DNA of 64,000 nucleotides from Candidatus Saccharimonadales bacterium (GTDB lineage: Bacteria; Patescibacteriota; Saccharimonadia; Saccharimonadales; UBA10212): the NCBI GenBank assembly GCA_035717985.1, contig DASTHW010000013.1, positions 73,436 through 137,435 of the forward strand, given 5' to 3'. Below the pieces are notes generated by a model. That model worked only from the letters and a program-made list of their open reading frames with translations. It did not search any database and was not told the origin of the DNA. Positions 49,916 through 64,000 of the stretch are shown in pieces. Made by a program: the position numbers and the translations under genes. Numbering within the stretch: the stretch's first letter is position 1; every line of letters starts with the position of its first letter.

Positions 49916-50395
49916 GTGGCTGAAACTGGAACAATCCGGCCCACTAAAAAACAGCAGGAACTGCTAAACTACATTGAAACTTTTATTGGCCAATACGGCT
50001 ACAGCCCCAGCTACCGCGAGATCATGAAAGGCTTAAATTACACCTCGGTGGCTACTGTCAGCCTGCACGTTAATAGCCTTATAAGCCGTGGCCACCTAAA
50101 AAAGCGCGACCGCTCAGCCCGGTCTTTAGAAGTTGTTAAGGCCAGCCCTCAAGCATCTGACAAAATCAGCCCTAAGCAGTTAAACGCCAGCGAAGAAAAG
50201 TGGCTAGTCGATAAAGTGGAACTATTTTTTAAGGAAGCTGAAGATCTGCCTAGAGCCGAGCAGGCTCAGCTGGACCAGCTTTATGTTTTAGTTGGCGCCT
50301 TAAAGGTGCTTGGCCTCACTGGCGCCGCCAGCTCTTACTCGGCCCGCTTAAGTGTCCTTAAAAAACCGGCTACCGAGACCGAATACGCCGTTTAA
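49916..50395 (+). CDS. LexA-N-terminal-type winged-helix DNA-binding protein lacking the S24 peptidase domain
   Basis: GTG start. The segment TKKQQELLNYIETFIGQYGYSPSYREIMKGLNYTSVATVSLHVNSLISRGHLKK matches the LexA DNA-binding domain. The remaining 85 aa or so are helical/charged and have no Ser-Lys dyad region. Confidence 0.7.
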   Translation: MAETGTIRPTKKQQELLNYIETFIGQYGYSPSYREIMKGLNYTSVATVSLHVNSLISRGHLKKRDRSARSLEVVKASPQASDKISPKQLNASEEKWLVDKVELFFKEAEDLPRAEQAQLDQLYVLVGALKVLGLTGAASSYSARLSVLKKPATETEYAV

Positions 50396-50406
50396 TGCCA
50401 CGTTTC

Positions 50407-52101
50407 TCAGGCAGTCTCGCTATAAATATATTTACCGCCCCTTAGCCACGAGGCCCCGGCGGCAATCAGGCAGGCTATAACCGCAAAAGTTAATACTACT
50501 ACTAGCCCGTGCTTAAACGGGCCAGCAATAAGATGCGGGAAGAATTCTTTAGAAGTCAGCCGGCTGGCCTGGGCGTGCGATAGGTGATTTAAAACATGAG
50601 GGCCCAGCAGAGTGCGCAAGGGGTTATAACCTAAAAAGGCGGCGAACAAGTAGCTGATTGCCGGCAAATGCGACAAGTTGGCGGCAGTGGCGGCTGGCAC
50701 GCCGTTAGCCGTTAAGCCACTGTAAATGCTAGCCGGCACATGGGCCGTGAGGCCAACAATCATCAGGCTAAAAAAGATACCGATAGATAGCGGCATGCCG
50801 ATGTTCATAAAGGTAGCCCGCATGCCCGAAGCCACGCCGCGAAAGCGGGCCGGCACCGAGTTCATAATCCCGGCAGTATTGGGCGAGCTAAACATGCCAA
50901 AGGCTAGTCCGTTAACCAGCAAAATTAGGGCGAATAAATAGTAGGGGAAATTGACCGGCAGTAACATCATTAGCCCAAAACTTAACCCAGCTAAAATCAT
51001 GCCGCCGGTAGCAAACGGCCGGGCGCCATATTTATCTGATAAATAGCCAGAAAGTGGCCCGGCGATTAAAAAGCCGGCCGTCGTTGGTAGCATGTAGATG
51101 CCGGCCCATAACGGTGTGTCGGTAAAGGCATAGCCGTGCAGTGGTAGCCAAATGCCCTGAAGCCACATAATCAGCATGAACTGCAAGCCGCCCCGGCCGA
51201 CGGCGGCCATCAGCCCGGCAATATTGCCGGCCGTGAAGGCTCTAATTTTAAAGAGACTCAAATTAAACATCGGCTCACTGACCCGCCGCTCAATAAAAAT
51301 AAAAGCAATCAGCGCCGCCAGCCCGCCCAAAATCATACCAATCACAAAGGGATCAGCCCAGCCCATCGGCGATGAGCCGTAGGGGCGGATACCGTAGGTT
51401 ATGCCGGTAAGTAACATTGCCAGTCCGGCGGCAAAGGTGATATTGCCCAGCCAGTCCAGCCGGGCCGGGTGAAAGACATCAATTTCTTTAAGGGCTAAAT
51501 ATGACCACAGAGTACCAATAATACCTATTGGAACGTTAAAGAAAAATACCCAGCGCCAAGAGTACTGGGACAAAAAGCCGCCGACCAAAATACCGACAAA
51601 CGAGCCGGCCATGGCCGAAATCTGGTTAACGCCCAGCGCCATACCGCGCTGATTCTCCGGAAAGGCATCAGTTAAAATGGCCGCCGAGTTGGCCATCAGC
51701 ATAGCGCCGCCGACTGCCTGAACCATCCTAAAAATAATTAGCTCTAGCGCTCCGGCCGAGCCGTGGCTGAAGGTCAAAGTAGCCAAGAGCGCGCCCAGAG
51801 TAAAAATGATAAAGCCTAAATTATACATTTTGACCCGGCCAAACATATCGCCCAGACGGCCCAGCGCCACTACCAAAACGGCGGTTACTAGCATGTATCC
51901 CAGCAAAATCCAGAGTAGATAAGTAAAACTGCTAGGGCTTAGCGGGTTGATGTGGATGCCTCGAAAAATTACCGGCAAGGCAATAATCAAGCTGGTAGAG
52001 TTGAGCGCCGCCAGCAACACGCCCAGCGTAGTGTTAGATAGGGCTATCCATTTATAATGCGGACTTTGTTTATTGGCATGGCGAAGTAAGCTCTTAATCA
52101 T
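50407..52101 (-). CDS. MFS transporter, DHA2 (EmrB/QacA, 14-TMS) family
   Basis: 564 aa. Contains LGRLGDMFGRVKMY (motif A-like). Many TM helices are present and the length fits a 14-TMS drug:H+ antiporter. Confidence 0.85.
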   Translation of the reverse strand: MIKSLLRHANKQSPHYKWIALSNTTLGVLLAALNSTSLIIALPVIFRGIHINPLSPSSFTYLLWILLGYMLVTAVLVVALGRLGDMFGRVKMYNLGFIIFTLGALLATLTFSHGSAGALELIIFRMVQAVGGAMLMANSAAILTDAFPENQRGMALGVNQISAMAGSFVGILVGGFLSQYSWRWVFFFNVPIGIIGTLWSYLALKEIDVFHPARLDWLGNITFAAGLAMLLTGITYGIRPYGSSPMGWADPFVIGMILGGLAALIAFIFIERRVSEPMFNLSLFKIRAFTAGNIAGLMAAVGRGGLQFMLIMWLQGIWLPLHGYAFTDTPLWAGIYMLPTTAGFLIAGPLSGYLSDKYGARPFATGGMILAGLSFGLMMLLPVNFPYYLFALILLVNGLAFGMFSSPNTAGIMNSVPARFRGVASGMRATFMNIGMPLSIGIFFSLMIVGLTAHVPASIYSGLTANGVPAATAANLSHLPAISYLFAAFLGYNPLRTLLGPHVLNHLSHAQASRLTSKEFFPHLIAGPFKHGLVVVLTFAVIACLIAAGASWLRGGKYIYSETA

Positions 52102-52112
52102 TTCAAATTAAA

Positions 52113-53726
52113 TCACTCTGTCTCTAGGGCGGCACCCTTAGCTACGTCTGCGGCCGAGCCCCTTAGTGGTGTCTCGCGCAGGAAAAGGGCCGCAATAAAA
52201 GCCGCCGCTACAAACGGTATGCCAATCAAAAACATGTCATGGAAAGAGCGGATAAAGGCAAGTAGGACATCGTGCTGGACGCTGGCCGGCACATGCTTAA
52301 GACCGGCGGTGCCGCTCTGGGTAATGGCAGAAATAGAGACATGTTTAAGAGCCTCTGGCGGTATGGCTTGCATAAGATGACGCGTCAGCCGCGAAATCAA
52401 TACTGTACCAAACACTGCGCCGCCTAGGGCGCTACCAATTGTTCTAAAGAATGTCGTGCTGGAGGTGGCTGTGCCCATTTGCGAGCGCTCCACCGAGTTT
52501 TGGACCGCCAGGGTCATAACCTGCATGAAAGAGCCTAGCCCCAGACCGATTATGACCATCCAAGCAGACAGCGTCAGCACGCTGGTAGTCAGCGTAACGT
52601 GGCTAAACAGCCACATACCCAGAGCTATCATCACGGCGCCAAAAATCGGGAAAGGCTTATAGCGGCCATATTTGGTAATCAGCCGCCCGGAGGTAATCGA
52701 AGCTGTCATCAGCCCGGCTACCAGCGGGAGCATGGCTAGGCCGGATTTGGTTGGACTATAGCCGCGGACCACTTGCTGGTACTGCGGGATATATAAAATG
52801 GCCGCAAACATGGCAATGCCCATCAGCACACTTAGTAGAACCGAGACGCTGAAAATGTCGTTTTTAAACAAATTCATTGGGATTAACGGCTCGGCGGCCC
52901 GCCTTTCCCAAAATACAAACCAGATACCAAAGACCAGCGTGCTGGCGATGAGACCCAAGATTTCCGAGCTGGTCCAGGCATAAGTTACGCCGGCCCAGAC
53001 AGAGACCAAAATTAAACTGACTACCGAAACGCTCATCAGGCCGGCACCAAAATAATCCACCTTGTGTTCGCGCCGGTGGACCGGCAAGTGCAGGCGGGCG
53101 GCTACGGCCGACAGGGCAATTACGCCTAGGGGCAAGTTAATGTAGAAAATCCAGCGCCAGCCGGCTATACCAAGCGCCGTCGGCAGGTCAGCTAAAAAGC
53201 CGCCAAGTAGCGGCCCGACTACGCTAGACAAGCCCCAAACGGCGCCAAAATAACCCTGGTAGCGCCCCCGCTGACGCGGCGGGATGACGTCGCCGATAAT
53301 GGCCAGCACCAGGCTCATCAGTCCGCCGGCCCCCAGGCCCTGGATGGCCCTAAATATCACCAGCTGATCCATGCTGTGGGACAGACCGCACAGTGCTGAG
53401 CCCAGCAGAAAGATGACAATCGCAATTTGGAAAATTTTCTTTCGGCCGAACAGGTCGCCAATCTTACCGTAAATTGGCGTGACGATAGCGCTGGTTAGCA
53501 GATATGCGGTAGCAACCCAGGCATATTTATTAAGCCCATTCAGATCAACGGCGATTTTGGGTAGCGCAGTAGAGACAATGGTCTGGTCCAGTGCGGCCAG
53601 TAACATTACCATCATCAGGGCGCCGATGACCACCATAATCTCGCCATGACTGCGCTCGGCGTGTAAGTCTTCCGGCGCCGGCGCCGATAAAGTGCCGCTA
53701 ACTTTACTAGCTAATTTCTTAATCAC
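52113..53726 (-). CDS. MFS transporter, DHA2 (EmrB/QacA) family
   Basis: 537 aa. Contains LDQTIVSTALPKI and GKIGDLFGRKKIF. It is a paralogue of the adjacent pump and overlaps marR by 4 nt. Confidence 0.85.
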   Translation of the reverse strand: MIKKLASKVSGTLSAPAPEDLHAERSHGEIMVVIGALMMVMLLAALDQTIVSTALPKIAVDLNGLNKYAWVATAYLLTSAIVTPIYGKIGDLFGRKKIFQIAIVIFLLGSALCGLSHSMDQLVIFRAIQGLGAGGLMSLVLAIIGDVIPPRQRGRYQGYFGAVWGLSSVVGPLLGGFLADLPTALGIAGWRWIFYINLPLGVIALSAVAARLHLPVHRREHKVDYFGAGLMSVSVVSLILVSVWAGVTYAWTSSEILGLIASTLVFGIWFVFWERRAAEPLIPMNLFKNDIFSVSVLLSVLMGIAMFAAILYIPQYQQVVRGYSPTKSGLAMLPLVAGLMTASITSGRLITKYGRYKPFPIFGAVMIALGMWLFSHVTLTTSVLTLSAWMVIIGLGLGSFMQVMTLAVQNSVERSQMGTATSSTTFFRTIGSALGGAVFGTVLISRLTRHLMQAIPPEALKHVSISAITQSGTAGLKHVPASVQHDVLLAFIRSFHDMFLIGIPFVAAAFIAALFLRETPLRGSAADVAKGAALETE

Positions 53727-54157
53727 TCTTGGCTCTCCTGGTTGGCGGCGTCGGCTAATTTTTGATGCAGTTCATGCAATACTTTTAATTCGTGGTCGCT
53801 TAGAGCGCTCATAGCCGAGCGCAGGCCGCCCATTTTATAACGGTTTAGTTTAATGACTAACTGCCGGCCCCTAGTAGTTAGGGCAATGACGGCTACCCGC
53901 CGGTCGGCAGTATCTGGCGCCCGGCTAACGAGACCCTTATCGATTAGCTGTTCAATCAACTGAGTGACGGCGCTTTTACTGATGCCCAAATGATCGGCCA
54001 GCTGTTTCATATTTATACCGGGCCGGTAAAACAGGGTATAAAGCATTCCCAGCTGGGCTCTAGACAGCTGGGTTTTTTGCCAGACAATTGGGCTTAGAGC
54101 CCGCTGAAGCCTGGCCACATTCTCAATAATCTCCTGAATTTTTTCGGCTCGATTCAT
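53723..54157 (-). CDS. MarR-family transcriptional regulator
   Basis: 144 aa. Winged-HTH region: MKQLADHLGISKSAVTQLIEQLIDKGLVSRAPDTADRRVAVIALT. Confidence 0.88.
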   Translation of the reverse strand: MNRAEKIQEIIENVARLQRALSPIVWQKTQLSRAQLGMLYTLFYRPGINMKQLADHLGISKSAVTQLIEQLIDKGLVSRAPDTADRRVAVIALTTRGRQLVIKLNRYKMGGLRSAMSALSDHELKVLHELHQKLADAANQESQE

Positions 54158-54159
54158 TT

Positions 54160-54200
54160 ATTTTAGTTAAGCTATTAAATAGTTAAGATACTTAAATGTT
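54160..54200. promoter_or_regulatory. Candidate MarR operator/promoter region
   Basis: Direct repeat TAGTTAAG at 54164-54171 and 54180-54187. Perfect palindrome TTAAG-ATA-CTTAA at 54184-54196. Both lie immediately upstream of marR. Confidence 0.4.
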
Positions 54201-54223
54201 AACAAACTTAACGAATGAGGTCA

Positions 54224-54249
54224 AGAAAAAAGCCCCGTTTAAGGGGCCA
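54224..54249 (-). terminator. Rho-independent terminator after the Pro-rich small protein gene
   Basis: The minus strand reads GGCCCC-TTAAAC-GGGGCT followed by TTTTTT. Confidence 0.7.
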
Positions 54250-54271
54250 ATTTCTGTTAAAGCAAAACTAG

Positions 54272-54520
54272 TTATTTTTTGGTCAGCAAGTAGGCTATGA
54301 CGATGATAGCGATTATCACTACCACGCCGATAATTAGCCAAGTGTGCGACTTTTTAGCCGGCATAGGCGGCTTGGGGCCGACAGCACTGGGCGCGGGCGG
54401 CGGGCCGGCAGGGTCAGGACCGGGCGGTGTGGGTGCCGGGCCGGGCGTTGGTGCTGGACCACTGGTCACTGGCGGCGTGGGTGCGGCCACCGGTGATTGA
54501 GGAACTTGGTTAGGATTCAT
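54272..54520 (-). CDS. Proline-rich protein with C-terminal TM anchor
   Basis: 82 aa. Roughly 55 aa of P/A/G/T low complexity are followed by WLIIGVVVIIAIIVIAYLL. A terminator lies downstream. Confidence 0.5.
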   Translation of the reverse strand: MNPNQVPQSPVAAPTPPVTSGPAPTPGPAPTPPGPDPAGPPPAPSAVGPKPPMPAKKSHTWLIIGVVVIIAIIVIAYLLTKK

Positions 54521-54595
54521 AATTCTTCCACCTTTTTAGCTTATATAACCCATTTTAGCATAAGCTAAAACTAAATTGCCTAGTCTTTTTTAGGC

Positions 54596-54760
54596 CTACA
54601 GGCGCCGCCGGCCAAAGATGTGATCTAAGATGTAAATTATTAGAGCGGCCACGAGTAGGAGATAAATAAAAAAACCGCCAATGTGGACGATTATGCCCAA
54701 CAGCCAAAGCAGTATCAAAATAGCAATTATGGCTAGTATCATGGCGCTAATCATAGCCAT
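54596..54760 (-). CDS. lmo0937-family small membrane protein
   Basis: Not in the ORF track (54 aa). My translation is MAMISAMILAIIAILILLWLLGIIVHIGGFFIYLLLVAALIIYILDHIFGRRRL. The LLWLLG...H..GG..I.LLLV....GRR pattern matches this family from memory. Confidence 0.65.
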   Translation of the reverse strand: MAMISAMILAIIAILILLWLLGIIVHIGGFFIYLLLVAALIIYILDHIFGRRRL

Positions 54761-54798
54761 AAAGCGGCCTCGTAAGCTGTTAGATAATTAACAGTTAG

Positions 54799-55065
54799 CT
54801 AATCTTCGGCGCCGTGCACAACATCTTCGGCCGGCGGGCTCTCAGTCTCCATAATTTCTACCTGCTCGGTCCGAGCGAGCAAATCTTCGCGGTTGGTAAA
54901 GCAGGCATTATCCGGGAAGGCTTTATAAAAATCTACTATCTCTGAGCCGGCGCCTTCCTTTTTGGCCAGGCCGGTTAGCTGGCGGGCTGAAATAGGGTAG
55001 TCGTCCACTTTATCGATTAAGTGCTGGAGATCGGTTAACTTTGCTTTAGTATCAAGAATAATCAT
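54799..55065 (-). CDS. Small cytosolic protein, DUF2795-like
   Basis: 88 aa. The segment DDYPISARQLTGLAKKEGAGSEIVDFYKAFPD resembles the DUF2795 pattern (Y/FP-x-S/K ... A...GA..EV...). Assignment is low certainty. Confidence 0.5.
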   Translation of the reverse strand: MIILDTKAKLTDLQHLIDKVDDYPISARQLTGLAKKEGAGSEIVDFYKAFPDNACFTNREDLLARTEQVEIMETESPPAEDVVHGAED

Positions 55066-55073
55066 GATTCCCC

Positions 55074-55223
55074 CTAGCGGTATTGATTATTAGCGTTTGT
55101 ACCTTTAGGCGGCACCTGCGGCGCGGTTTTTGACGGGTCGGCCGGCTTGGTGGGCTGAGCACCTGGGTTCCGGGCTGATCTTTGAATATGTAGTTTATTG
55201 TCGGCGCTAGTATGTTTGCTCAT
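55074..55223 (-). CDS. Possible 49-aa hydrophilic micro-protein
   Basis: My translation is MSKHTSADNKLHIQRSARNPGAQPTKPADPSKTAPQVPPKGTNANNQYR. A GGGGG lies 5 nt before the ATG. However, it sits only about 30 nt after a terminator hairpin, so expression is uncertain. Confidence 0.25.
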   Translation of the reverse strand: MSKHTSADNKLHIQRSARNPGAQPTKPADPSKTAPQVPPKGTNANNQYR

Positions 55224-55253
55224 GTTTACCCCCTGACATATCTCTAACTTCAA

Positions 55254-55286
55254 TAAAAAACCCCGTGCCTTCTCACTCGCACAGGG
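55254..55286 (-). terminator. Rho-independent terminator after the S/G-rich anchored protein gene
   Basis: The minus strand reads CCCTGTGC-GAGTGAGAAG-GCACGGGG followed by TTTTTTATT. There is one mismatch in the 8-bp stem. Confidence 0.6.
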
Positions 55287-55376
55287 TTTTATGCTTGACG
55301 CCTAATAATCATTCGGGCTACCTCCCAAGCACAAGTTTATTTAATATTATCTGCCCGGTTTCAGCTGTGTGAAATT

Positions 55377-55889
55377 TCACAAGCTAAGGCTGGTGGGCTT
55401 AGGGATTGACGGATCAATGGTGGTTGAGGTGCCGCCAACCGACAAATTACCAACGCTTAAACTTGGAGTCTGCAGGGTGGCCGAGACATTATTTTTGCCG
55501 GTTACGCCGCTAGCTGGCAGTGACGAGCCGGAGCTTGAGCCGCCGCTCCCGCCTAGACCGCCATAAGTAGTAGGGCTAGAGGGTTGATATAGGCTACCGG
55601 TTTGGCCGCTTGCGCTACCAGCTGAGCTAGCTGGGACAGCAATCCCGCCGGAGCCGCCACTGCTAGAGCCAGCCGACTGCGGGCCATGAGCGGTCTGGCC
55701 AGGGCTGGTGCTGGACGGCTTAACTGTATAAATCCCCAGCGTCTGCGGTTTTGGCCCGGGCTGGCTGGTGGTAATACCGAAATAAATTACCAAAAATAAT
55801 ATCACCGCCATCGGCAGGATAAATTTAAGATTATCGGTCAGTGTCTCTAAAGATGGGTGTTCTACCCCACCGTGGACCGTGTACCTCAC
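55377..55889 (-). CDS. Membrane-anchored Ser/Gly/Pro-rich low-complexity protein
   Basis: GTG start 9 nt after AGGAG. It has one TM helix (FILPMAVILFLVIYFGI). About 125 aa of S/G/T/P-rich sequence follow. Confidence 0.5.
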   Translation of the reverse strand: MRYTVHGGVEHPSLETLTDNLKFILPMAVILFLVIYFGITTSQPGPKPQTLGIYTVKPSSTSPGQTAHGPQSAGSSSGGSGGIAVPASSAGSASGQTGSLYQPSSPTTYGGLGGSGGSSSGSSLPASGVTGKNNVSATLQTPSLSVGNLSVGGTSTTIDPSIPKPTSLSL

Positions 55890-56012
55890 AAGCAGTTACT
55901 CCTAAAAGCCATTTCATTACTTCTCTCGCTAGCTAACAGGATACGGGTAAGAGGTCCAAGACCACAGTTACTTTTTTGACAGGTAAAGACCTAAATTTTT
56001 AACACCTATGAG

Positions 56013-56618
56013 CTAGAAATTACCGAAGTAGTACCAAAAGCGTTTTAGAACCAGAGCGATAATTATGAGATACCAGACGATTAAAATGTCTAAATGATGA
56101 CGGCGGGCAAAGGTTGTCGCGCCCGCCAGCCGCTTAGGCTTTGTCAGATGGCCGGCGTCCAGGTTATATAAAGTGGTGTACCAAAAGGCCGGGATGGTTA
56201 CGGCCCAGGTAACCATGCAAAAAAGGCAGAGCGCACCGATTCGGTAAAGCGTTTCATACTGTAGCCAGGTGATAAAAACGATGGCAAAGGTCATACCAAG
56301 CTGGAATAGGCGCCAAAACCATTTTTTAAGCCGGGCGCCGGCCAGCAAAACAGAACCAACCGTGGCTACGGCCGCAAAACCGGCTAGGCCAAGGAAGGGG
56401 TTATAAAAACCAAAGGCCTCGGCTTGGTCAGAGCCGGAGACAGTAGAACAGCTAAAGATCGGGTTTAAGTTACAAACCGGCACGTAATGCGGATTTTTTA
56501 AGGTATCAATTTTTTCGATAGAAAGTATCAGCGAGGCCAATACCCCGATAATGCCGGCTATTAAAATCAACCACGGAAAAACCGTGCTCAATTTCTCACC
56601 CGCCTTCACTTTCGCCAT
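56013..56618 (-). CDS. Vitamin K epoxide reductase (VKOR) family disulfide-bond-forming protein
   Basis: 201 aa with 4-5 TM helices. The loop Cys pair is CNLNPIFSC and the redox motif is CLFC, as in bacterial VKOR homologues. Confidence 0.8.
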   Translation of the reverse strand: MAKVKAGEKLSTVFPWLILIAGIIGVLASLILSIEKIDTLKNPHYVPVCNLNPIFSCSTVSGSDQAEAFGFYNPFLGLAGFAAVATVGSVLLAGARLKKWFWRLFQLGMTFAIVFITWLQYETLYRIGALCLFCMVTWAVTIPAFWYTTLYNLDAGHLTKPKRLAGATTFARRHHLDILIVWYLIIIALVLKRFWYYFGNF

Positions 56619-56668
56619 ATATCAAATAAGTATAAGCGCTAGCGAGTGCGGGCGTAAAGCGGACTGTT

Positions 56669-56770
56669 CTACCAGAAATTTTGGTTGTCTTCGCTCAAAA
56701 CTTCTCGTACCTGCCGGCGAATGGCCCGCCGCTTTTGGTAGTCATTTAAGTAGTCTTGAAATCCGCGCAT
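56669..56770 (-). CDS. Possible 33-aa basic micro-protein
   Basis: My translation is MRGFQDYLNDYQKRRAIRRQVREVLSEDNQNFW. A strong GGGAGG lies 3 nt before the ATG. It is below the ORF-track cutoff. Confidence 0.35.
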   Translation of the reverse strand: MRGFQDYLNDYQKRRAIRRQVREVLSEDNQNFW

Positions 56771-56875
56771 TTGCCTCCCGTATCTATCCCCGTATCTATC
56801 TAAATACAATTGTAGATCCGGTGAGCGGGCTTTTCTGTTAGGTATTTAACGAGCGGACCAGTTTCAGGCTATAAA

Positions 56876-57289
56876 TTATTCAAATTGGCCAAGAGTGCCA
56901 ATGATGATCAAAACGGCGCCGGCAATAGCTATTGCCAGGCCGATAAAAAACGGCAAGAACACCCAGCAGGCTATGCCGATAATGATAACGATAAAGCCGG
57001 TCAGAATTATTTTAGTTTGAGTTGGATTGGCCGGTTTTTTGCTAGTGGGTTCGGGTGCCTCGGCCGGAATTTTAGCAAGCTCGGAAGTTTTATAACCCAA
57101 AATCCCTGGCTCCTTGCCGGACTTTTTTTCGCCTTCGCTTTCCTCTTTTTCTTTTTCCTCGTCCTCTTTTTTGTCTTCGCACTCGGTCTGCTTAATTTTT
57201 AACTCATCACCCTCTATAGAGACCGCCTCTTTAGGGAGCTCTAATTCTATTTTCACAGTCTCGGTTTTGTCCTCATCTTCTTCTGCCAT
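56876..57289 (-). CDS. Glu/Lys-rich protein with C-terminal double-TM anchor
   Basis: 137 aa. The acidic N-terminal half (EEDEDK, KKEDEEKEKEESEGEKK) is followed by two hydrophobic helices. Confidence 0.5.
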   Translation of the reverse strand: MAEEDEDKTETVKIELELPKEAVSIEGDELKIKQTECEDKKEDEEKEKEESEGEKKSGKEPGILGYKTSELAKIPAEAPEPTSKKPANPTQTKIILTGFIVIIIGIACWVFLPFFIGLAIAIAGAVLIIIGTLGQFE

Positions 57290-57372
57290 GACCTTAGTCT
57301 GGAATCAAAATATAAATGCCACAGTAAGGGATTTAACAATTGGCTAGCTGAAGAAGACGGGCTAAAGATTTT

Positions 57373-57492
57373 TTATGAATCTATCTCTTCGGCAAGCTCT
57401 TTTTTGTCGCTGTCCGTCAGCTGATCGGGGCTAATGCCTTGCTCCTCAATCATTTTGTCGACTTTTTTTGGCGTTGGTGTGTTGTCGTCCAT
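57373..57492 (-). CDS. Possible 39-aa acidic micro-protein
   Basis: My translation is MDDNTPTPKKVDKMIEEQGISPDQLTDSDKKELAEEIDS. GGAGGGGGAG lies directly upstream of the ATG. Confidence 0.35.
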   Translation of the reverse strand: MDDNTPTPKKVDKMIEEQGISPDQLTDSDKKELAEEIDS

Positions 57493-57574
57493 GGCTCCCC
57501 CTCCTTAGTGACTAAAGCATAGGCCGGCCAGCCGGCTGGTAGCTATAAGAATTTTGACAAGCTTTGAGTTGATT

Positions 57575-58123
57575 TTAGGGCCGCAAGACTTCTAGGCCAT
57601 CTTGGCTAAGGCGGATAACCTTACTGGCAGAGCCACCCACCTGCCCGGCGCGGTAAAAATCTACTTGGTCGTCAAAATATTGTTTAGCCTCAGTGATATT
57701 GCCGGCCGGCGGGGAGCCCTCGGGGTTAGCGCTGGGCGCCGTCAGCGGGCCGGTACTAGCTAGCAAACGCCGCAGTGCCGGTTTAGCCGGCACTCTAAAG
57801 GCTAAAGACTGGCCGCCGCGGTGCAGATAAGCAAATTTATCCTGCGGGCAGGGCAGTACTAGGCTGACCGGCCCGGGCCAAAACTGTTTAAGCTGGGCGG
57901 AAAGGTTTTTATCTAGGTGAATATCAAATAATTTCAAATAGCGGGGGCTGGCAATAAGAATAATGAATGGCTTATCGGCACGGCGACCTTTTAGCTGGTA
58001 AATCCGCTCTACGGCGTTTGGTGAAAAGGCGGAGCCAACCAAACCATAAATAGTATCGGTAGCCATTACACCTACGCCGCCGTTTTTTAAAATTTCGATA
58101 ATGTCTACTGAGCTTTTTGGCAT
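57575..58123 (-). CDS. tsaC: L-threonylcarbamoyladenylate synthase (YrdC/TsaC family)
   Basis: 182 aa. Contains ATDTIYGLVGSAFSPNAVERIYQLKGRRADKPFIILI and SANPEGSPPA. Confidence 0.85.
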   Translation of the reverse strand: MPKSSVDIIEILKNGGVGVMATDTIYGLVGSAFSPNAVERIYQLKGRRADKPFIILIASPRYLKLFDIHLDKNLSAQLKQFWPGPVSLVLPCPQDKFAYLHRGGQSLAFRVPAKPALRRLLASTGPLTAPSANPEGSPPAGNITEAKQYFDDQVDFYRAGQVGGSASKVIRLSQDGLEVLRP

Positions 58124-58230
58124 TTGCTTTATATGATCTCCTGGTTAAGGCTAGTCTTCATGGGACTAGGGCTGGTGTCTTTTAGAAGCTACTACCTAAG
58201 TAAAGCCTTGGTCAAGAGCTAAAGCCAAGT

Positions 58231-58260
58231 TTGACTGGTTAAGCAGAGCTACCCTATAAT
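58231..58260 (+). promoter_or_regulatory. Near-consensus sigma70 promoter driving the leader and tRNA-Asn
   Basis: TTGACT (58231-58236), an 18-nt spacer, then TATAAT (58255-58260). Confidence 0.6.
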
Positions 58261-58299
58261 CAATCTGTTATTTTCTTCTTTATCCAAGGGAAAAGAGCA

Positions 58300-58376
58300 G
58301 GCACGATTCGCTCATATTGAGCGAATCCGGATTCACTCCGGAAGTGCCGATGAGGAAAACCGTAGGTTGTCCTCAT
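58300..58376 (+). ncRNA. Highly structured leader RNA between promoter and tRNA-Asn (unknown class)
   Basis: GGCAC (58300-58304) pairs with GTGCC (58344-58348). This helix encloses a perfect 9-bp hairpin, GATTCGCTC/GAGCGAATC (58305-58327), and a CCGGA/TCCGG hairpin (58328-58341). A 7-bp hairpin ATGAGGA/TCCTCAT follows at 58350-58376. Confidence 0.35.
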
Positions 58377-58392
58377 GAGCGTCAAGCGCTAA

Positions 58393-58467
58393 TCCGGGGT
58401 AGCTCAACGGTAGAGCGGGTGGCTGTTAACCACTAGGTTGCTGGTTCGAATCCAGTCCCCGGAGCCA
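58393..58467 (+). tRNA. tRNA-Asn (anticodon GTT), CCA encoded
   Basis: Hand-folded cloverleaf. Acceptor TCCGGGG/CCCCGGA, D-arm GCTC/GAGC, anticodon stem GGTGG/CCACT with loop CTGTTAA, T-arm GCTGG-TTCGAAT-CCAGT, discriminator G, then CCA. Confidence 0.9.
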
Positions 58468-60075
58468 AGATAGAGAATCAACGCTAATTGACCGAGATTG
58501 ACCCCTGCTATAGGGGTCTTTTTCGTTGGTTCTAACCACACTTGCAAGCTCCAACTTGCTTTCATTCATTTTTTCGATAGGAACAAAGTATTTATTAGGT
58601 GTAAATTGTATGGTTCTATCCTTAATCGTAAGCTTTTCGCCAAGCTTCACCACAACTGCACGTTTCTTCTCTAAGTCATCACTATCAAATTCTTCTTTAG
58701 CATATCGCGCAAAAGTGAACACTTCATCAGCTTTAGCACGCCAGTCACGAGCCTTGTACTCATCTTTATTACGAGTATTTTGTAAGCTCTCTAACTCGTC
58801 TTCAAGTGTTTGCATTTCCGCAAAGTACCATGAGTCATCGTCAGCCTCTCCTGCATATCGCATTCTGCGTAGATTGTTAATGGACAGTTTCTTCTTTTCT
58901 ATCGCTCTGTCGTGAGCCAATGTCTTAGCTTGGTCTTTTACCACAACCTCATCTTCCTCCTGTGCTAATGCTTCAATAGCAAGCTTGTAGAAATCGGGGT
59001 CAATAGTGAATTTACTTAGCTTTTCTTTTATTTGTTCAATCAAGACATCCTCATTTACGTGTAGTTTTGGTTGGCTACATTTAATGGCTTTGTTCTTACC
59101 CGTGCAGTGATAGTACACATACTCTTTACGTTCTCCGGTAGATTTAATAGTCTTACGTTTCTGTTCAGCAGTTATTGCAAAACCACACTCACCGCAACGG
59201 AAAAGGTTTCGCAGTTGAAAGTTATAAGTCTTGTCTTTAGGACGAGTTGTGTGTGTTGGGTCTATGATTTGTTGCACTCGTTCGAATTCATCTTCTGTGA
59301 TCATAGCAGGATGCTTACCCGGATATTCCTCACCTTTGAACATTAATGTACCTGTGTAGAATTTGTTTTTGAACATGGCACATAGTGATGAATAGGCGAT
59401 AGGATTTCCACCAGTTCTACCTCTAACAGGTGTAGTTAAATGTAAATCGAACTCTGCAATATCAACTAATTCCGCCATAGAATAGGTTCCGGTCAGCATC
59501 TTTTCCCATAACAGACGAACTAGGTTGAATCGGTCAGGATCAGCGATAATAACCTTTTCAAGACGATCGTTTAAGTAACCGATAGGTGGTACTCCGGGTT
59601 TGTGTCCCTTTTCGACTTTCGATTGCATTCCACGGCGGGTATTACTGCTTAGCTCACGAATATATTGGTTAGACATACCTGCTTCAACGCTAAATACGAT
59701 AGCGTTGTCTTCGGGATAGTAGCTCTTTTCAGCAGTTAGGATGTGCTTTAGCTTACCGTCTTGTAATAGCTGTTGAATACGGCCACTTTCAGTCGGGTTG
59801 CGAGACAAACGGTCTAATTTCCAGCACACAATGCCATCAATCTTACCGTCTTCAATCTCTTGCATGAGTTCATCGAATAACGGTCGAGCAAAGGGACGTT
59901 TTGCAGAATGACTTTCGCGATAAGGTTCACCGATTAGACGTACACTCTCACGCTTAGCCACTGATTTCATTACCTTTACTTGGTCATCAAGCGACTGAAC
60001 CTGTCTATCTTCTGTTTCTGATGACTTACGAGCATACAGACGGTAACGTAAGTTCTGTAAATTTCTGTTATTCAT
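58426..60075 (-). CDS. Large serine recombinase (integrase)
   Basis: 549 aa. Resolvase-type N-domain with YARKSSETEDRQVQSLDDQ. A recombinase domain follows, then a zinc-ribbon (CGECGFAITAEQ...YYHCTGKNKAIKC) and a coiled coil. The last 14 codons are antisense to tRNA-Asn, and the TAA stop is the complement of TTA in the anticodon loop. Confidence 0.9.
   Translation of the reverse strand: MNNRNLQNLRYRLYARKSSETEDRQVQSLDDQVKVMKSVAKRESVRLIGEPYRESHSAKRPFARPLFDELMQEIEDGKIDGIVCWKLDRLSRNPTESGRIQQLLQDGKLKHILTAEKSYYPEDNAIVFSVEAGMSNQYIRELSSNTRRGMQSKVEKGHKPGVPPIGYLNDRLEKVIIADPDRFNLVRLLWEKMLTGTYSMAELVDIAEFDLHLTTPVRGRTGGNPIAYSSLCAMFKNKFYTGTLMFKGEEYPGKHPAMITEDEFERVQQIIDPTHTTRPKDKTYNFQLRNLFRCGECGFAITAEQKRKTIKSTGERKEYVYYHCTGKNKAIKCSQPKLHVNEDVLIEQIKEKLSKFTIDPDFYKLAIEALAQEEDEVVVKDQAKTLAHDRAIEKKKLSINNLRRMRYAGEADDDSWYFAEMQTLEDELESLQNTRNKDEYKARDWRAKADEVFTFARYAKEEFDSDDLEKKRAVVVKLGEKLTIKDRTIQFTPNKYFVPIEKMNESKLELASVVRTNEKDPYSRGQSRSISVDSLSWLRGLDSNQQPSG
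58500..58523 (+). terminator. Rho-independent terminator after tRNA-Asn
   Basis: GACCCCT-GCTAT-AGGGGTC followed by TTTTT. It lies inside the antisense 3' end of the recombinase ORF. Confidence 0.65.
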
Positions 60076-60241
60076 TTTTGGTGTCTTTTGATTTCGTTAT
60101 GTTTTGTTCTGATATTTTTTCAACATATTGTTTAATTCTCTTGAATTGATCTTTAGATAAATTTGAGTGCTTCTGTTTAAGACCAATAGGCTGGCGGGCT
60201 ATTAAAACAATGTCTCTCTGGCTTACTACACGATAGTTCAT
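60068..60241 (-). CDS. 57-aa protein overlapping the recombinase start (candidate directionality factor or regulator)
   Basis: My translation is MNYRVVSQRDIVLIARQPIGLKQKHSNLSKDQFKRIKQYVEKISEQNITKSKDTKNE. Its last codons overlap the integrase ATG (AAATGAATAA). It is below the ORF-track cutoff. Confidence 0.4.
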   Translation of the reverse strand: MNYRVVSQRDIVLIARQPIGLKQKHSNLSKDQFKRIKQYVEKISEQNITKSKDTKNE

Positions 60242-60320
60242 ATTATTTCCTTATTTTGCGTTAGTTACAATTAGATGGCTATATTATAGTTGGACTATTA
60301 TAGGATGTATATCTTTACTT

Positions 60321-60413
60321 AGTAGAACCTTTATATAAGATTAACTTTAAATACTAAATGTATATTTATATATAAAGGTATATCTAGATATAAAGGTCTA
60401 CTAATGTAAAGGT
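60321..60413. repeat. AT-rich regulatory repeats upstream of the recombinase operon
   Basis: TATATAAAGGT occurs at 60369-60379, ATATAAAGGT at 60388-60397 and TGTAAAGGT at 60405-60413. An inverted copy ACCTTTATATA lies at 60327-60337. The 15-mers AGTAGAACCTTTATA (60321-60335) and TATAAAGGTCTACTA (60389-60403) form an inverted repeat with one indel. Confidence 0.6.
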
Positions 60414-60420
60414 TCATGGG

Positions 60421-60759
60421 TTAGAAGTCTGGTATATCATCCAGAGTTATTGGTCCATCAGGTATATCTGTAACCACGACATCCTTACTGTCCGCGATAT
60501 ACAACTTAACCTGATCAACACAAGCTTCGAATATCTCCTCCCACAAGGGAAGATGCGTGTTGAACTGTACGATCGGTATATATTTACCGAATTTATTGCG
60601 TTGATTGGGTGGATATACAGCCCAGTCATGCTCTCCATCGGGTGGAAAAACCACCATGCCATTTATGAAGATGCCTAACACTTTGTCAGATACTTTAACC
60701 CTGAAACCCTTGTCTAATGGCATATGTACTTCTGCTTCGATGTTAAATAGCTTTGGCAT
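60421..60759 (-). CDS. Island hypothetical protein (weak SpoVG-like flavour)
   Basis: 112 aa and acidic. The segment FINGMVVFPPDGEHDWAVYPPNQRNKFGKYIPIVQFNTHLPLWEEI is loosely reminiscent of the SpoVG beta-sheet module. This is not a confident family call. Confidence 0.5.
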   Translation of the reverse strand: MPKLFNIEAEVHMPLDKGFRVKVSDKVLGIFINGMVVFPPDGEHDWAVYPPNQRNKFGKYIPIVQFNTHLPLWEEIFEACVDQVKLYIADSKDVVVTDIPDGPITLDDIPDF

Positions 60760-60907
60760 TTAACACCTCCTTTTGAGGAGTGGTCAAACGAACAAAGTCT
60801 GCAAGCTCCTTTAGTTGCGACTCGGCTGCTGAGTAACCTATGACCTCACCATATTTGTTAAGGTAGATCGCTTGAAAGCGTTCTACTAGTTCTTTACTTA
60901 ATTGCAT
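60743..60907 (-). CDS. 54-aa island micro-protein
   Basis: My translation is MQLSKELVERFQAIYLNKYGEVIGYSAAESQLKELADFVRLTTPQKEVLNAKAI. A GGAGAG lies upstream. Its 3' end overlaps the next ORF start by 17 nt. Confidence 0.35.
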   Translation of the reverse strand: MQLSKELVERFQAIYLNKYGEVIGYSAAESQLKELADFVRLTTPQKEVLNAKAI

Positions 60908-61049
60908 TTCTACTCTCCGTAGAGAGTTCGCCTAACCGGACGATTGTTGCTAGGTGAACTCGGATTATTCGTCCTAGTCCCTAGTTAAAATCTTTATAAG
61001 TTTATTGTCGTTGTATTGGTTTTATGTCGTTACAAAATGGTTCAGTTTC

Positions 61050-61916
61050 TTACATTTTCGGTTCAGTAACAGCGCCTAGTTCTTTAAGTTTGTTGTCTAG
61101 TGTGACTGTATCAATTTTCTCGGTATCTGCTTGTTCGCGTGTAATTGTGGGACGGAAAACGATACCATTATCTTTACTTACAGTCGGAAAAAACAATGCT
61201 CTTAGTTCTTTTGTAAATCCCGCACTATTTAGAACTGTACTTATGTTACGTGCTGTTTGACCTAAATTAGGTTTAAATAGCGTGTTAGGATTTTTTAAGG
61301 ATTGTTCAAGTAGTCGTTCTGTTGTTGACCCAGCATGAGCTTTTTTTAGTTTCATAACATCATTAACCAAAATTGAGCCATCAGGTTTATAGGTCAGTGT
61401 GTACTTTGGGATATATCTTTCGCTCTCTTTTTTTATTTGCTGTTCTTTGTTTACTTCATTAGCAATTTTGTTGTACTTAGACATTGCTGTTTTAGCGTTA
61501 TCAATCAGCTTTTTTTGGCCTGCTGACATATGTGGTTCTTCAACACCAGAAACAATACATAGCTTTTCTAATCTAGCACCATGAGCTTTCATTTCATCAG
61601 GGCTTATTTCAGTTGCATAGTCATTTATTTCCCAAGTAGAGGTTCGCAGAACATCAAAACGCTTCCAAATGGGTTCAGGCTTAATTTCAGCTAATGCAGG
61701 ATTGTGGTCATACAACTTTTGTAATTCTGCGACAAGAAGTATGTACGCCCTATTAAGTTCATTTATTTCATAGTTGTCTGGCATACCGAAAGTATCACCG
61801 ACTATCACTGTAAATATTATTGCTAAAGCCTGATCATTCAGTACTTTTGCAACTGCGTAATCATTCTTAGCGACAGACTGATTCGTAACACCCATATCGT
61901 TAAACATTATATGCAA
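61050..61916 (-). CDS. Island hypothetical protein
   Basis: 288 aa with a long uninterrupted ORF in AT-rich DNA. It is divergent from a small HTH gene across a 46-bp spacer. I recognise no family. An alternative start is at 61907. Confidence 0.55.
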   Translation of the reverse strand: MHIMFNDMGVTNQSVAKNDYAVAKVLNDQALAIIFTVIVGDTFGMPDNYEINELNRAYILLVAELQKLYDHNPALAEIKPEPIWKRFDVLRTSTWEINDYATEISPDEMKAHGARLEKLCIVSGVEEPHMSAGQKKLIDNAKTAMSKYNKIANEVNKEQQIKKESERYIPKYTLTYKPDGSILVNDVMKLKKAHAGSTTERLLEQSLKNPNTLFKPNLGQTARNISTVLNSAGFTKELRALFFPTVSKDNGIVFRPTITREQADTEKIDTVTLDNKLKELGAVTEPKM

Positions 61917-61962
61917 ATGTCTATACTTATATATAGAGGACTAATACAAAAAGGAGTAAGTT

Positions 61963-62193
61963 ATGGCGATCAAAAATGCTGTAGGACGACCACCTAAAAT
62001 GTCGATGAAAATAATCGACAAATTATCTGATTCAATCTCTCACAATTACAATGTCAGTGATTCATGCAAATACGCAAAGATTGCGAGGAGCACATTTTAC
62101 CAGTACCTAAAAACCGAGCCAATCTTCGCTAATAAAATTGCTATCGCACGAGAAAACCAGAACAAAGTAAGTTTTAATTTTCGTACACTTTAG
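61963..62193 (+). CDS. Small helix-turn-helix DNA-binding protein
   Basis: 76 aa with an AAAGGAG SD. The segments GRPPKMSMKIIDKLSDSI and SDSCKYAKIARSTFYQYLK give a resolvase/terminase-small-type HTH pattern. Confidence 0.55.
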   Translation: MAIKNAVGRPPKMSMKIIDKLSDSISHNYNVSDSCKYAKIARSTFYQYLKTEPIFANKIAIARENQNKVSFNFRTL

Positions 62194-62428
62194 TTGCTTA
62201 ACTAGCGCCCCCGTACACGATTTTGACAAATATTATGTACGAAAATGGCGTTGAGGGGTTATTGGCGGAAAAAAAATTTGCGTGGTATTGAAATGCTCTA
62301 ATAAAGCGATTTGGATGAACGGTTTTTAAATGCTTCTGTCGGCTATTTGGAGCGTGTTGGACGCGTTCCAGCTTGGGAGTTGATAAAAGTATCATCCCTT
62401 ATCTACTCCTGTTAAATTTGGTTTTTAT

Positions 62429-63136
62429 CTACTTTGAATTGAGAGCTTTAATTAAACCCTCATCATCATATTTGAACGCATTTGTATTATTACCGACTTC
62501 AACGACTTTTAATCCACCGTCTTCTAGTGGGTGAATGAATGGTTCTATTTCATCACGTTTTGTTTTTGTTGGGTCGATCCATGCTTGTTCGTCTTCTTTA
62601 TGCAAAATAACTGGCATTCTGTTATGAACCTTTGACGCTTCTTTATTTGGTTCAGTTGTAATTATCGTATAGGTTTTCCAATCTCTATCTCCGGCATCTT
62701 TCCAAACATCATAAAAACCTGCGAAAGAGAATAGTTCTTGTTGCTTTAGAGTGTAATAATACTTTTGCTTTTCTTCGCCCTTTGGAGGTTTTGTCCACTC
62801 ATAATACCCAGATGCTGGGACTAATGCACGTTTGCGATATACGCTTCGCCACATTCCACTGGTAAATACTTTATCGTCTCTTGCGTTGAATAATTTGTAG
62901 CTGATTTTGGGGTCTTCTTTCCACCATGATGGAATTAAGCCCCATTTCATTTCTTCAAGAACAGTTTGACCTTTATCATTTACGAAAATCACAGGCGCCA
63001 TCTGTGATGGTCGAATGTTATAACTTTTAAAGCCTTCGCCCGTTTTATCTAGAAAACCATAGTTACTTTTAAACCCGTCAGCCGTAGCGTACACAGAGTA
63101 TGCACCACAAGCATCGTCATATCGAAAGTAATTCAT
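62429..63136 (-). CDS. SRAP (SOS-response-associated peptidase, YedK/HMCES) family protein with a 9-residue N-terminal extension before the catalytic Cys
   Basis: 235 aa. Family motifs are present: LFNARDDKV (Asn), LVPASGYYEW (Glu) and VHNRMPVIL (His). The protein begins MNYFRYDDACGAYS instead of the canonical MCGR. Confidence 0.8.
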   Translation of the reverse strand: MNYFRYDDACGAYSVYATADGFKSNYGFLDKTGEGFKSYNIRPSQMAPVIFVNDKGQTVLEEMKWGLIPSWWKEDPKISYKLFNARDDKVFTSGMWRSVYRKRALVPASGYYEWTKPPKGEEKQKYYYTLKQQELFSFAGFYDVWKDAGDRDWKTYTIITTEPNKEASKVHNRMPVILHKEDEQAWIDPTKTKRDEIEPFIHPLEDGGLKVVEVGNNTNAFKYDDEGLIKALNSK

Positions 63137-63303
63137 CGCAACATTTCCTTGAGTTTTTCGAAGTATTCCAGCACTTTATCTTGATCCCAACTGCTATATG
63201 TATCAAGGCGTGACATCTTTTGTAATTGCTTTTCTACGGGGTTTTCTTCAAACACATCGTGAAATAGTATCTCAAGTTTTTTACGCGCCTCGTCTTTATC
63301 CAT
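63133..63303 (-). CDS. 56-aa acidic helical micro-protein coupled to the SRAP gene
   Basis: My translation is MDKDEARKKLEILFHDVFEENPVEKQLQKMSRLDTYSSWDQDKVLEYFEKLKEMLR. Its TGA overlaps the SRAP ATG (ATGA). Confidence 0.4.
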   Translation of the reverse strand: MDKDEARKKLEILFHDVFEENPVEKQLQKMSRLDTYSSWDQDKVLEYFEKLKEMLR

Positions 63304-63325
63304 TGCTTAATTATATAATCCTCTG

Positions 63326-64000
63326 TTAGTCGACTTTTGAAAGGAAAAGCACAGAAGGTGTAATTACCCATGACTCTGAGCCATATAGGTTCATATAGGG
63401 ATTCTGAATAATTAATGGCTCGTAGTCTGATTTGGCGATTTTGGTTCTATCAACAAGGTAGAGATAGTAATTTTTATGTTTCGCCTTAGCAGTTTTGATT
63501 TCATTCTCCGACCAATAAAAACTAGGCTTACCTGAGAATGATTTAACTTCAATTAAACGCTGTGGGGAATGAGATTGGTTATCGTGAAATGAAATAATGT
63601 CATAGCCAGCAGTGACATCAACATCTGAAATCCTCTTTATCATTTTTTTATTAGGGTTCCCATACAGTCTTTTAGATTCAAATTTAACTACAAAATCTTC
63701 TGCCTCGGCGCCATAGAGTTCCTGGCGTAGTAAAGATTCTTTTAGCTGTTCGATTGATACAGTCCGCAAAGAATTTTCTTTTGATAACAGCCCAGTAAAA
63801 AATAAATCATACGGTGCATTTATCTGATAACTGAATGTAGATTGTTGCCTTGTAAGCAAACCTAAGTCAGTTAGCATACGTCTAATTGGTCTGTAGCGAA
63901 GCGGAAAACTTTGAGGCCCGACAATTAGCAAATCTGTTCCAGAATCACGTGTGATTGCCTGAGGATTAAATAGCTTGAAGAGTTCATTACTTTCTTCCAA
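63326..64000 (-). CDS. C-terminal part of a DUF3883-like (PD-(D/E)xK nuclease-fold) protein, N-terminus beyond the window
   Basis: The C-terminus is TAGYDIISFHDNQSHSPQRLIEVKSFSGKPSFYWSENEIKTAKAKHKNYYLYLVDR. This fits the DUF3883 pattern G-[YF]-D-I...IEVK...F-x-S-x-N-E...Y-x-L-Y-x-V. Confidence 0.65.
   Translation of the reverse strand: MEESNELFKLFNPQAITRDSGTDLLIVGPQSFPLRYRPIRRMLTDLGLLTRQQSTFSYQINAPYDLFFTGLLSKENSLRTVSIEQLKESLLRQELYGAEAEDFVVKFESKRLYGNPNKKMIKRISDVDVTAGYDIISFHDNQSHSPQRLIEVKSFSGKPSFYWSENEIKTAKAKHKNYYLYLVDRTKIAKSDYEPLIIQNPYMNLYGSESWVITPSVLFLSKVD

Follow-up and report, generated by a model that had tools for sequence, protein, structure and literature searches.

A large serine recombinase gene that reads through its reconstructed attachment site into tRNA-Asn at the junction of a putative integrative element of Saccharibacteria

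Bacteriophage Mx8 inserts at a tRNA-Asp locus, and the SSV1-type archaeal integrases target a tRNA gene, where integration splits the integrase gene into two large parts. In the integration-dependent immunity of mycobacteriophages, the phage attachment site (attP) lies inside the coding sequence of a repressor, and integration by a tyrosine enzyme changes the C-terminus of that protein and its stability or activity. The directionality of the large serine recombinases (LSRs) is usually explained by coiled-coil contacts together with a separate factor, and the attP of known LSRs normally lies outside the integrase gene. The Mx8 attP is located inside the integrase coding sequence, integration producing a recombinant gene with a new 3' end (IntP/IntX), whose modified product stays active with a changed specificity (PMC6070905), and the open reading frame (ORF) of the SSV1-type archaeal integrase extends across attP (Islander; PMC4383910). 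Here, an LSR gene is described which runs antisense into a tRNA-Asn gene near the right end of a 64,000-nt stretch of DNA from Candidatus Saccharimonadales bacterium (assembly GCA_035717985.1, contig DASTHW010000013.1, positions 73,436–137,435; this whole stretch is called the window below). The right end of the window was found to be, with high probability, the left junction (attL) of an integrative element inserted at the tRNA-Asn gene, and the reconstructed attP of this element falls inside the 3' end of the integrase's own ORF. The remark of a first-pass annotation of this DNA that tRNA targeting is unusual for serine integrases agrees with Islander (2015; PMC4383910), in which none were known to do so, and in the large LSR survey of Durrant (2022) the target genes analyzed are protein-coding, with no mention of tRNA in the main text.

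The tRNA calls were made with ARAGORN, the domain calls with Pfam, and the gene coordinates were taken from the ORF list of the 64-kb window (Table 1). The sole tRNA gene of the window, tRNA-Asn(GTT), overlapped by 42 nt (58426–58467) in antisense orientation with the integrase ORF of 549 aa, whose TAA stop (58426–58428) is the complement of the TTA made up of anticodon positions 35–36 and A37. The antisense tRNA strand provides the final 13 codons of the integrase (WLRGLDSNQQPSG, i.e., WL plus 11), followed by the stop codon. Before entering the tRNA, the ORF crosses a terminator-like hairpin (fold z-score of -2.7) followed by TTTTT, and the opposite strand of this region, the P' arm, encodes integrase residues from about N511 to S536 (NEKDPYSRGQSRSISVDSLS), approximately 26 codons over element DNA. 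The GC content dropped from ~50 to ~38% to the right of ~58500 and remained low until the window end. The passage of the ORF across the hairpin and 42 nt into the tRNA, with its stop in the anticodon loop, had already been recognized in the first-pass annotation and was confirmed by ARAGORN and the ORF list, while its estimate of 15–45 C-terminal residues encoded by the attachment site and tRNA has to be reduced to 13 for the tRNA-encoded part. An otherwise identical public contig (L001) carries C instead of T at position 58439 in the variable loop of tRNA-Asn, which changes one residue of the integrase tail (Q in one copy, R in the other). Because of this Q/R difference, a look-up with the exact 549-aa protein produced no match.

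A scan of one genome per GTDB species gave 26 loci, all of them in metagenome-assembled genomes of Saccharibacteria, and in about 20 of these the integrase ORF entered tRNA-Asn(GTT) exactly as in the window. The tRNA-Asn gene was called as intact both in the window and in about 20 loci that are occupied. At E <= 1e-20, over 3,000 homologues of the integrase were retrieved; the best 120 were 70–100% identical to it over the full length and originated, where a source was named, from Saccharibacteria. A common C-terminal layout was present in these 120 proteins, consisting of a conserved ...MVRT, a block of 17–33 aa belonging to a few unrelated classes, a conserved SLSWL and a tail. The tail was of the antisense-tRNA kind, RxxDSNxxPxx-like, in 109 of them, with W as the complement of CCA and DSN as the complement of the T-loop GGTTCGAATCC; five homologues had a different conserved tail (..[LV][AV]DxLR[TN]..), one had the tail PVIEEVITIIKNDLVLI, these six tails being encoded by the arm of another element, four ended at a contig edge right after WL, and the last one (P0033) possessed another tail. 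Termination upstream of SLSWL was found in none of the 120. LSR families only 23–26% identical also enter tRNA-Asn in the same frame, with W as the complement of CCA. Judged by these comparisons, the arrangement of an integrase ORF running into a tRNA is far beyond chance.

Every attL, read in the sense of the integrase, had the structure (hairpin)...TCTCTATC[T/A]-TGGCTC-(tRNA), in which the tRNA part varied by genome and the classes of the left part were shuffled among genomes. The class of the window was also present at P0002, P0005 and P0054, beside different variants of tRNA-Asn. Because the classes shuffle across tRNA variants, the hairpin and the left part were assigned to the element as its P' arm; the hairpin had been taken in the first-pass annotation for the terminator of the host tRNA, a reading that could not be kept, as the native terminator was found at the right junction (attR) in relatives. 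In several loci, attR was recognized by a second TGGCTC ~7.5–11 kb upstream of the integrase gene, preceded by unrelated DNA with a terminator and followed by ACNACG-ATAGAGGAAGTTATAACC... (ACNACGATAGAGGAAGTTATAACC), which encodes WL-TT(I/V)EEVITxIKxD... in the TGG frame. By this composition attR is the P arm plus the displaced host flank, and the attR flank of L009 was homologous to the DNA directly 3' of tRNA-Asn in unoccupied metagenomic sites such as L104, L132 and L083. The direct repeat of the tRNA 3' segment for which the first-pass annotation had proposed to search is not to be expected at attR, only a 6-bp core being shared.

The four-way comparison of attP, the host site (attB), attL and attR included nine loci and a circular-assembling form of the element described below, and when attP and attB were reconstructed for nine elements, they had nothing but GAGCCA in common. 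Because nothing else is shared by the sites, the crossover dinucleotide is placed within GAGCCA, i.e., inside the overlap of the integrase ORF with the tRNA, where the first-pass annotation had suggested that it might lie. It is probably GA (58462–58463), since an inverted repeat in attP, CTCTAT(C)...(G)ATAGAG, is centered on these two bases. In the tRNA sense, attP reads as the P arm (GGTTATAAC-TTC-CTCTAT-N6), GAGCCA and the P' arm (AGATAGAG, hairpin and T-run), and the reconstructed attB consists of the tRNA-Asn 3' end followed by the native terminator. The P-arm motif was absent from positions 50001–64000 of the window, and attR is located outside because the element continues past the window end. 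The matching Logan contig stopped ~41 nt past the window, and the exact 40-mer of the window end was absent from viral contigs.

The integrase with the PVIEEVITIIKNDLVLI tail (P0092, 551 aa) was encoded in two samples, in both cases on a contig of 8,960 bp. The ends of either contig overlapped exactly over 141 bp, and the two were circularly permuted relative to each other, resulting in a unit of 8,819 bp, which was repeated with the same period on a 17,954-bp contig from a third sample. These three contigs contained neither a tRNA nor any tRNA sequence beyond GAGCCA. The gene order in the 8,819-bp form was int, DUF4268, GmrSD, an EcoRI-type methylase, HTH_17 and the conserved core genes. The simplest reading is a circle with an intact attP (P'-GAGCCA-P) inside the integrase ORF. 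In L032 and L033, the integrase ORF reads through P', the core and the P arm, ending 17 codons past the core, and the un-integrated end of the protein is ...SLSWL-[T/P][T/V]IEEVITxIKxD followed by 3–10 aa, in comparison with WL-RGLDSNQQPSG in the window. Whether circle or array, an integrase read across the un-recombined site ends in the IEEVIT tail and one read across attL in antisense tRNA, so the different C-termini that the first-pass annotation had foreseen for the two states were indeed found, the IEEVIT tail in the circular-assembling form and at attR. Tails of type B arms end in a similar hydrophobic motif, ..[LI]IKE[VI]L... When the last 67 aa of the integrase alone served as the query, 11 fragments were obtained, from which un-integrated forms could not be counted. 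Several assemblies end exactly on the TGGCTC core, shortly behind it or within the island (the end of L007 at 11602, P0078, P0113, P0116 and the start of L001), which is what a population with mixed integrated, excised and tandem states would produce.

According to this reconstruction, tRNA-Asn stays intact and host-encoded after insertion, the native terminator moves to attR, and the P' arm supplies a predicted replacement terminator behind the tRNA; the P' hairpins had folding z-scores from -2.7 to -5.2 in three P' classes, the fourth class being weaker. The same event exchanges the last 17–22 codons of the integrase for 11 antisense-tRNA codons with the TAA stop in the anticodon loop. For A118-type integrases, a 5-bp shift in the register of the zinc-ribbon motif between attP and attB has been proposed (Rutherford, 2013), and it is matched here by GGTTATAAC at -24..-16 in the P arm and GGTTCGAAT at -19..-11 in the tRNA, counted from the G of GAGCCA: the two motifs are identical at six of nine positions and the latter is 5 bp nearer to the core. 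By the A118-type model, the zinc-ribbon domain would read GGTTCGAAT in attB and GGTTATAAC in attP.

Several observations weigh against parts of this picture. The crossover is resolved to 6 bp and not to 2. A mirror of the zinc-ribbon motif was found neither on the P' nor on the B' side, the P' arm is not conserved beyond +13, conservation of both P' and B' is poor past AGA(TAGAG), and the B half-site is, in its inner part, unlike the P half-site; the A118-type half-site model appears to fit only partly. With attR beyond the window, the right end and the size of the window element rest on relatives. An unoccupied site from the host lineage of the window was absent among the 154 loci, and the Sua5 flank of the window matched only the same contig. 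The circularity of the 8,819-bp form is deduced from assembly topology, to which a tandem array of identical units looks alike, and the two units on the 17,954-bp contig are only 94% identical. The last two points would suit a different explanation of the free form as a chromosomal head-to-tail array, in which an attP-type junction exists only between neighboring elements, and real tandem arrays of different element types are indeed present at L002 and L004. On the other hand, a closed 8,819-bp cycle with no host junction was obtained from two samples, and the units of an array, too, would each have had to exist at one time as a circle with this attP, which makes the array explanation quite unlikely. 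A classical tDNA island, with the crossover in the anticodon or T loop and an element-borne tRNA 3' half replacing that of the host, would agree with the integrase stop in the anticodon loop, a classical crossover region, and with L005, L009, L071 and other loci in which the integrase gene is followed by no more of tRNA-Asn than its 3' half. It was considered very improbable, however, given that the circular-assembling form lacks tRNA sequence past the core, that attR has only the 6-bp core, and that the tRNA 3' halves follow the host with P' classes shuffled across them; for the half-tRNA loci, another and unrelated insertion upstream, into the anticodon loop, is the better explanation. The null of the first-pass annotation, a recombinase gene that abuts the tRNA by chance and is not the inserting enzyme, finds some room in the invisibility of attR in the window copy but is contradicted by the identical junction in about 20 independent genomes with different tRNA-Asn sequences, by the matching attR sites of relatives, and by the tRNA-free circular-assembling form carrying the intact site, and it retains next to no probability. 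The role proposed for the recombinase, as the enzyme integrating an element at tRNA-Asn, is thereby upheld by the recurrent junction and the attR sites.

More evenly balanced is the question of what the exchange of tails means for the protein. By analogy with Mx8 IntP/IntX, the new tail could mark the integrated state and alter the activity or specificity of the integrase, and convergent transcription of the tRNA may damp integrase expression after insertion. Such a state-dependent change in activity is favored, at roughly even odds, over a neutral swap, in which a disordered C-terminal extension happens to cross attP with the structure otherwise the same. The neutral swap was given a somewhat less than even chance. 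It draws on the AlphaFold model of the un-integrated form, where pLDDT (the model's local confidence score) was below 50 at residues 510–551 with a low-confidence helix only at 537–547, so the tail may be a dispensable disordered extension, a point that also counts against a role for the exchange; furthermore, the block between MVRT and SLSWL is hypervariable and apparently dictated by the terminator hairpin of the arm, and the integrated tails vary with the host tRNA sequence and are longer where only a tRNA half follows. Against neutrality speaks the fact that all 120 best homologues read on into the core even though P' DNA is free to vary, as do the read-through frame kept between LSR families as distant as mentioned above and the similar hydrophobic ending of the type B arm tails. 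In addition, codons 12–15 of the un-integrated tail (IKxD), which are outside the expected 25-bp DNA-binding half-site, were compared between 20 distinct P arms, and of the deviations from the consensus 12 fell on the first, 9 on the second and 32 on the third codon position; this third-position bias has the pattern of protein-level constraint, and the un-integrated tail appears to be under coding constraint. A stronger version, in which the exchange of tails is what sets the direction of recombination in a half-symmetric serine integrase system, was regarded as unlikely. There, only the left half-sites (P arm versus tRNA arm) would differ, with P' and B' loosely specified, so that attL would still be attB-like and attR still attP-like. 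If it were true, repeated tRNA-proximal insertions would build integron-like arrays at tRNA-Asn, composed of autonomous elements (~7.5–11 kb) together with single-gene units that lack an integrase and have P' and P arms at their borders, and immediate re-excision would be blocked by the replacement of the conserved C-terminal helix with tRNA-antisense codons rather than by a separate directionality factor, perhaps aided by convergent tRNA transcription. As a speculation, weak right half-sites could explain tandem arrays, since attL would still resemble attB.

Table 1. Features at the right end of the window (positions are those of the 64,000-nt stretch).
Feature	Position	Strand	Remarks	Basis
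tRNA-Asn(GTT)	58393..58467	+	Intact; B arm of the putative attL, i.e., host half of the attachment site	ARAGORN
Large serine recombinase gene, integrated form, 549 aa	58426..60075	-		Pfam, homologues, alignment
GGTTCGAAT T-arm motif	58443..58451	+	Candidate zinc-ribbon target in the B half-site	Position counting; inferred
Common core GAGCCA	58462..58467	.	Last 2 acceptor-stem nt, discriminator base and CCA	Four-way att comparison
P' arm of the element	58468..58523	+	AGATAGAG at 58468-58475; predicted intrinsic terminator, hairpin 58500-58518 and T-run	
57-aa ORF	60068..60241	-	Overlaps the integrase ATG by 8 nt; lineage-restricted	
AT-rich intergenic region (29-33% GC)	60242..60420	.	Between orf112 and the integrase region	
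Conserved core module	60421..61916	-	orf112 60421-60759, orf54 60743-60907, orf288 61050-61916	
76-aa helix-turn-helix protein	61963..62193	+	Divergent; HTH_7; small-terminase-like HTH; conserved core	Pfam, PHROG
Variable cargo	62429..64000	-	SRAP peptidase 62429-63136, orf56 63133-63303, NOV_C-domain protein from 63326 to beyond 64000	Pfam

The integrase was classified as an LSR because it combines the Resolvase (PF00239, E 8.6e-19, residues 13–158), Recombinase (PF07508) and Zn_ribbon_recom (PF13408) domains. In an alignment of 36 sequences, S18 of the YARKS motif was nearly invariant and the cysteines C294, C297, C324 and C333 were invariant. The closest solved structure was the SPbeta integrase (E 9e-12), with the A118 integrase also among the nearest, and the AlphaFold model of P0092, weak overall (pLDDT 65), contained two long helices at 361–407 and 414–464 with a local pLDDT of ~80–90. 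The identity of the integrase to any phage record was at most ~27%, and scans of viral contigs revealed neither an integrase relative nor the P-arm pattern; the family does not look phage-like. No phage or conjugation genes were recognized in the element.

Apart from the integrase, the element carries a short conserved module and variable cargo, and the mapped members of the family span ~7.5–11 kb. By tblastn, at least 12 related loci and the circular-assembling form had the genes orf112, orf54 and orf288 upstream of the integrase gene, always with their order kept, and the gene of the 76-aa helix-turn-helix protein was conserved in nine loci. None of orf57 (the 57-aa ORF), orf112, orf54 and orf288 had Pfam or PHROG matches. 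The 218 homologues of orf288 were all labeled hypothetical; its AlphaFold model was confident (pLDDT 88.6) with no fold match in PDB better than E 0.2, so this protein may have an undescribed fold. The 57-aa ORF, a candidate directionality factor in the first-pass annotation, has nothing but its position in favor of that role. It was intact in L155–L158 with 82% aa identity (10 synonymous and 10 non-synonymous codon changes), had weak syntenic similarity to possible distant counterparts in L021 and L004, and was absent at most loci of the family, including the circular-assembling form. The AT-rich intergenic region contained motifs similar to ATATAAAGGT in direct and inverted orientation, along with promoter-like sites directed towards the integrase gene, and may be a regulatory (operator) or origin region. 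In seven loci (L010, L016, L028, L002, L024, L013 and L023), a conserved stretch that translates as HKHAQSVFISRPKMGGRYQEMALRYGLCQQPA and is absent from the window was noticed ~150 nt upstream of and overlapping the integrase start; it could encode a small protein or else be an RNA or regulatory element under conservation. In the cargo, tblastn matches to the SRAP gene were limited to L001 (the same sequence) and L021, with annotated or aligned counterparts in L155/L156, and the NOV_C gene matched L001 only.

The tRNA-Asn 3' end was also used to retrieve 120 metagenomic loci, most of which were unoccupied, whereas in 10 of them a long ORF extended antisense into the tRNA. An element of a second type, with an LSR of 500–513 aa and a Phage_CRI replication protein, is present in L002 and L004, where its P arm is entered by the integrase ORF of the neighboring element; in L004, the LSR of the second type itself enters tRNA-Asn. 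Different element types were located in tandem on one tRNA-Asn core at L002 10001–19173, L004 10001–20037, L018 ~11597 and L028 ~1324–1781. A third type of P arm (TGGCTC-nGCTTACAGGTCACGAAC) and a second LSR family share the GAGCCA core, and tRNA-Asn is therefore a hotspot for several families of elements. Integrase-less segments between tRNA-Asn and a type-A P arm were observed as well, both short (L048, 857 bp; L089, 727 bp; L108, 772 bp; L119, 1,160 bp) and longer (2.6–6.1 kb in L036, L101, L150 and L129). They were organized as tRNA-Asn with GAGCCA, a conserved end of ~77 bp with a terminator hairpin, cargo, P arm, GAGCCA and a native-type terminator, the smallest having a single cargo gene (RibD_C, NUDIX or Imm5-like), and L048, L089 and L108 had only both ends in common. 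Such segments could be non-autonomous units, similar to integron cassettes and mobilized in trans, or deletion remnants. At another set of loci (L005 ~2118–2170, L009 ~10130–10180, L071, L124 and L133), no more than the last 42 nt of tRNA-Asn adjoin the integrase gene, the divergence starting exactly in the anticodon loop and the integrase tails being longer (..PSGYT...), which looks like a second, classical (tyrosine-type) upstream insertion by which the LSR element was displaced along with the 3' half of the tRNA. Other tRNA genes may also be involved: a 44%-identical relative reads into tRNA-Arg, and the best match among deposited phage records, an LSR on a 9.3-kb 'Bacteriophage sp.' scaffold from human feces (L159, MT836653.1, 7529–9156), 26.5% identical to that of the window, has an ORF that overlaps tRNA-Glu(TTC) by 61 nt in antisense and uses a different frame there. 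The targeting of tRNA ends by LSRs may thus extend beyond Saccharibacteria.

If correct, these results contradict the working rule that tRNA genes are targeted only by tyrosine integrases, and they imply that island finders keyed on a tRNA plus a tRNA fragment will miss elements of the window type. A C-terminus that reports the integration state would be a testable addition to the models of LSR directionality. The family is very abundant in Saccharibacteria and other genomes of the candidate phyla radiation (CPR), with defense and repair genes as cargo, and is probably a major route of gene flux in the reduced CPR genomes. With its compact integrase and a tRNA-Asn site of ~50 bp, at which recombination is predicted, it may serve as a natural integration tool for genetically intractable hosts.

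A literature search for serine recombinases, tRNA-Asn or islands in Saccharibacteria and for tRNA-targeting serine integrases, most subscription papers being outside its scope, found no description of this system, and the combination of tRNA targeting with an ORF-spanning attP was otherwise found described only for unrelated tyrosine integrases. An attP within the integrase ORF, an arrangement of Mx8 and SSV, would hereby be extended to serine recombinases. Similar to the window family, Mx8 has its attP core inside the integrase ORF and acquires a new C-terminus upon integration. However, its Int is a tyrosine recombinase and the replaced segment is much longer, in contrast to the window family, where an LSR with serine domains only uses a 6-bp core and exchanges ~17–22 codons. 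The SSV1-type integrases are archaeal tyrosine recombinases, and, unlike theirs, the integrase gene of the window family stays essentially whole. In the mycobacteriophage immunity systems integration alters a C-terminus as well, and the form of the protein there serves as a read-out of whether the phage is integrated; no degradation tag is evident in the window integrase. Islander-class islands share with the window family the insertion at a tRNA gene with a functional tRNA kept, an adjoining integrase gene and variable cargo, but they depend on a tyrosine integrase and have a duplicated tRNA fragment at the far end, where the window family has a serine integrase and only GAGCCA. The LSRs of phages and integrative and conjugative elements (A118/LI, SPbeta SprA, phiC31, Bxb1 and TP901-1) have the same resolvase, recombinase and zinc-ribbon domains as the window LSR, for which a long helical (coiled-coil-like) insertion like theirs is predicted, and the reconstructed attachment sites of the window family would resemble theirs in being short with a tiny core and in a candidate zinc-ribbon-type motif 5 bp further out in attP than in attB; what sets the window family apart from them is the target at the tRNA 3' end, the attP inside the gene and the poorly conserved P' half-site.

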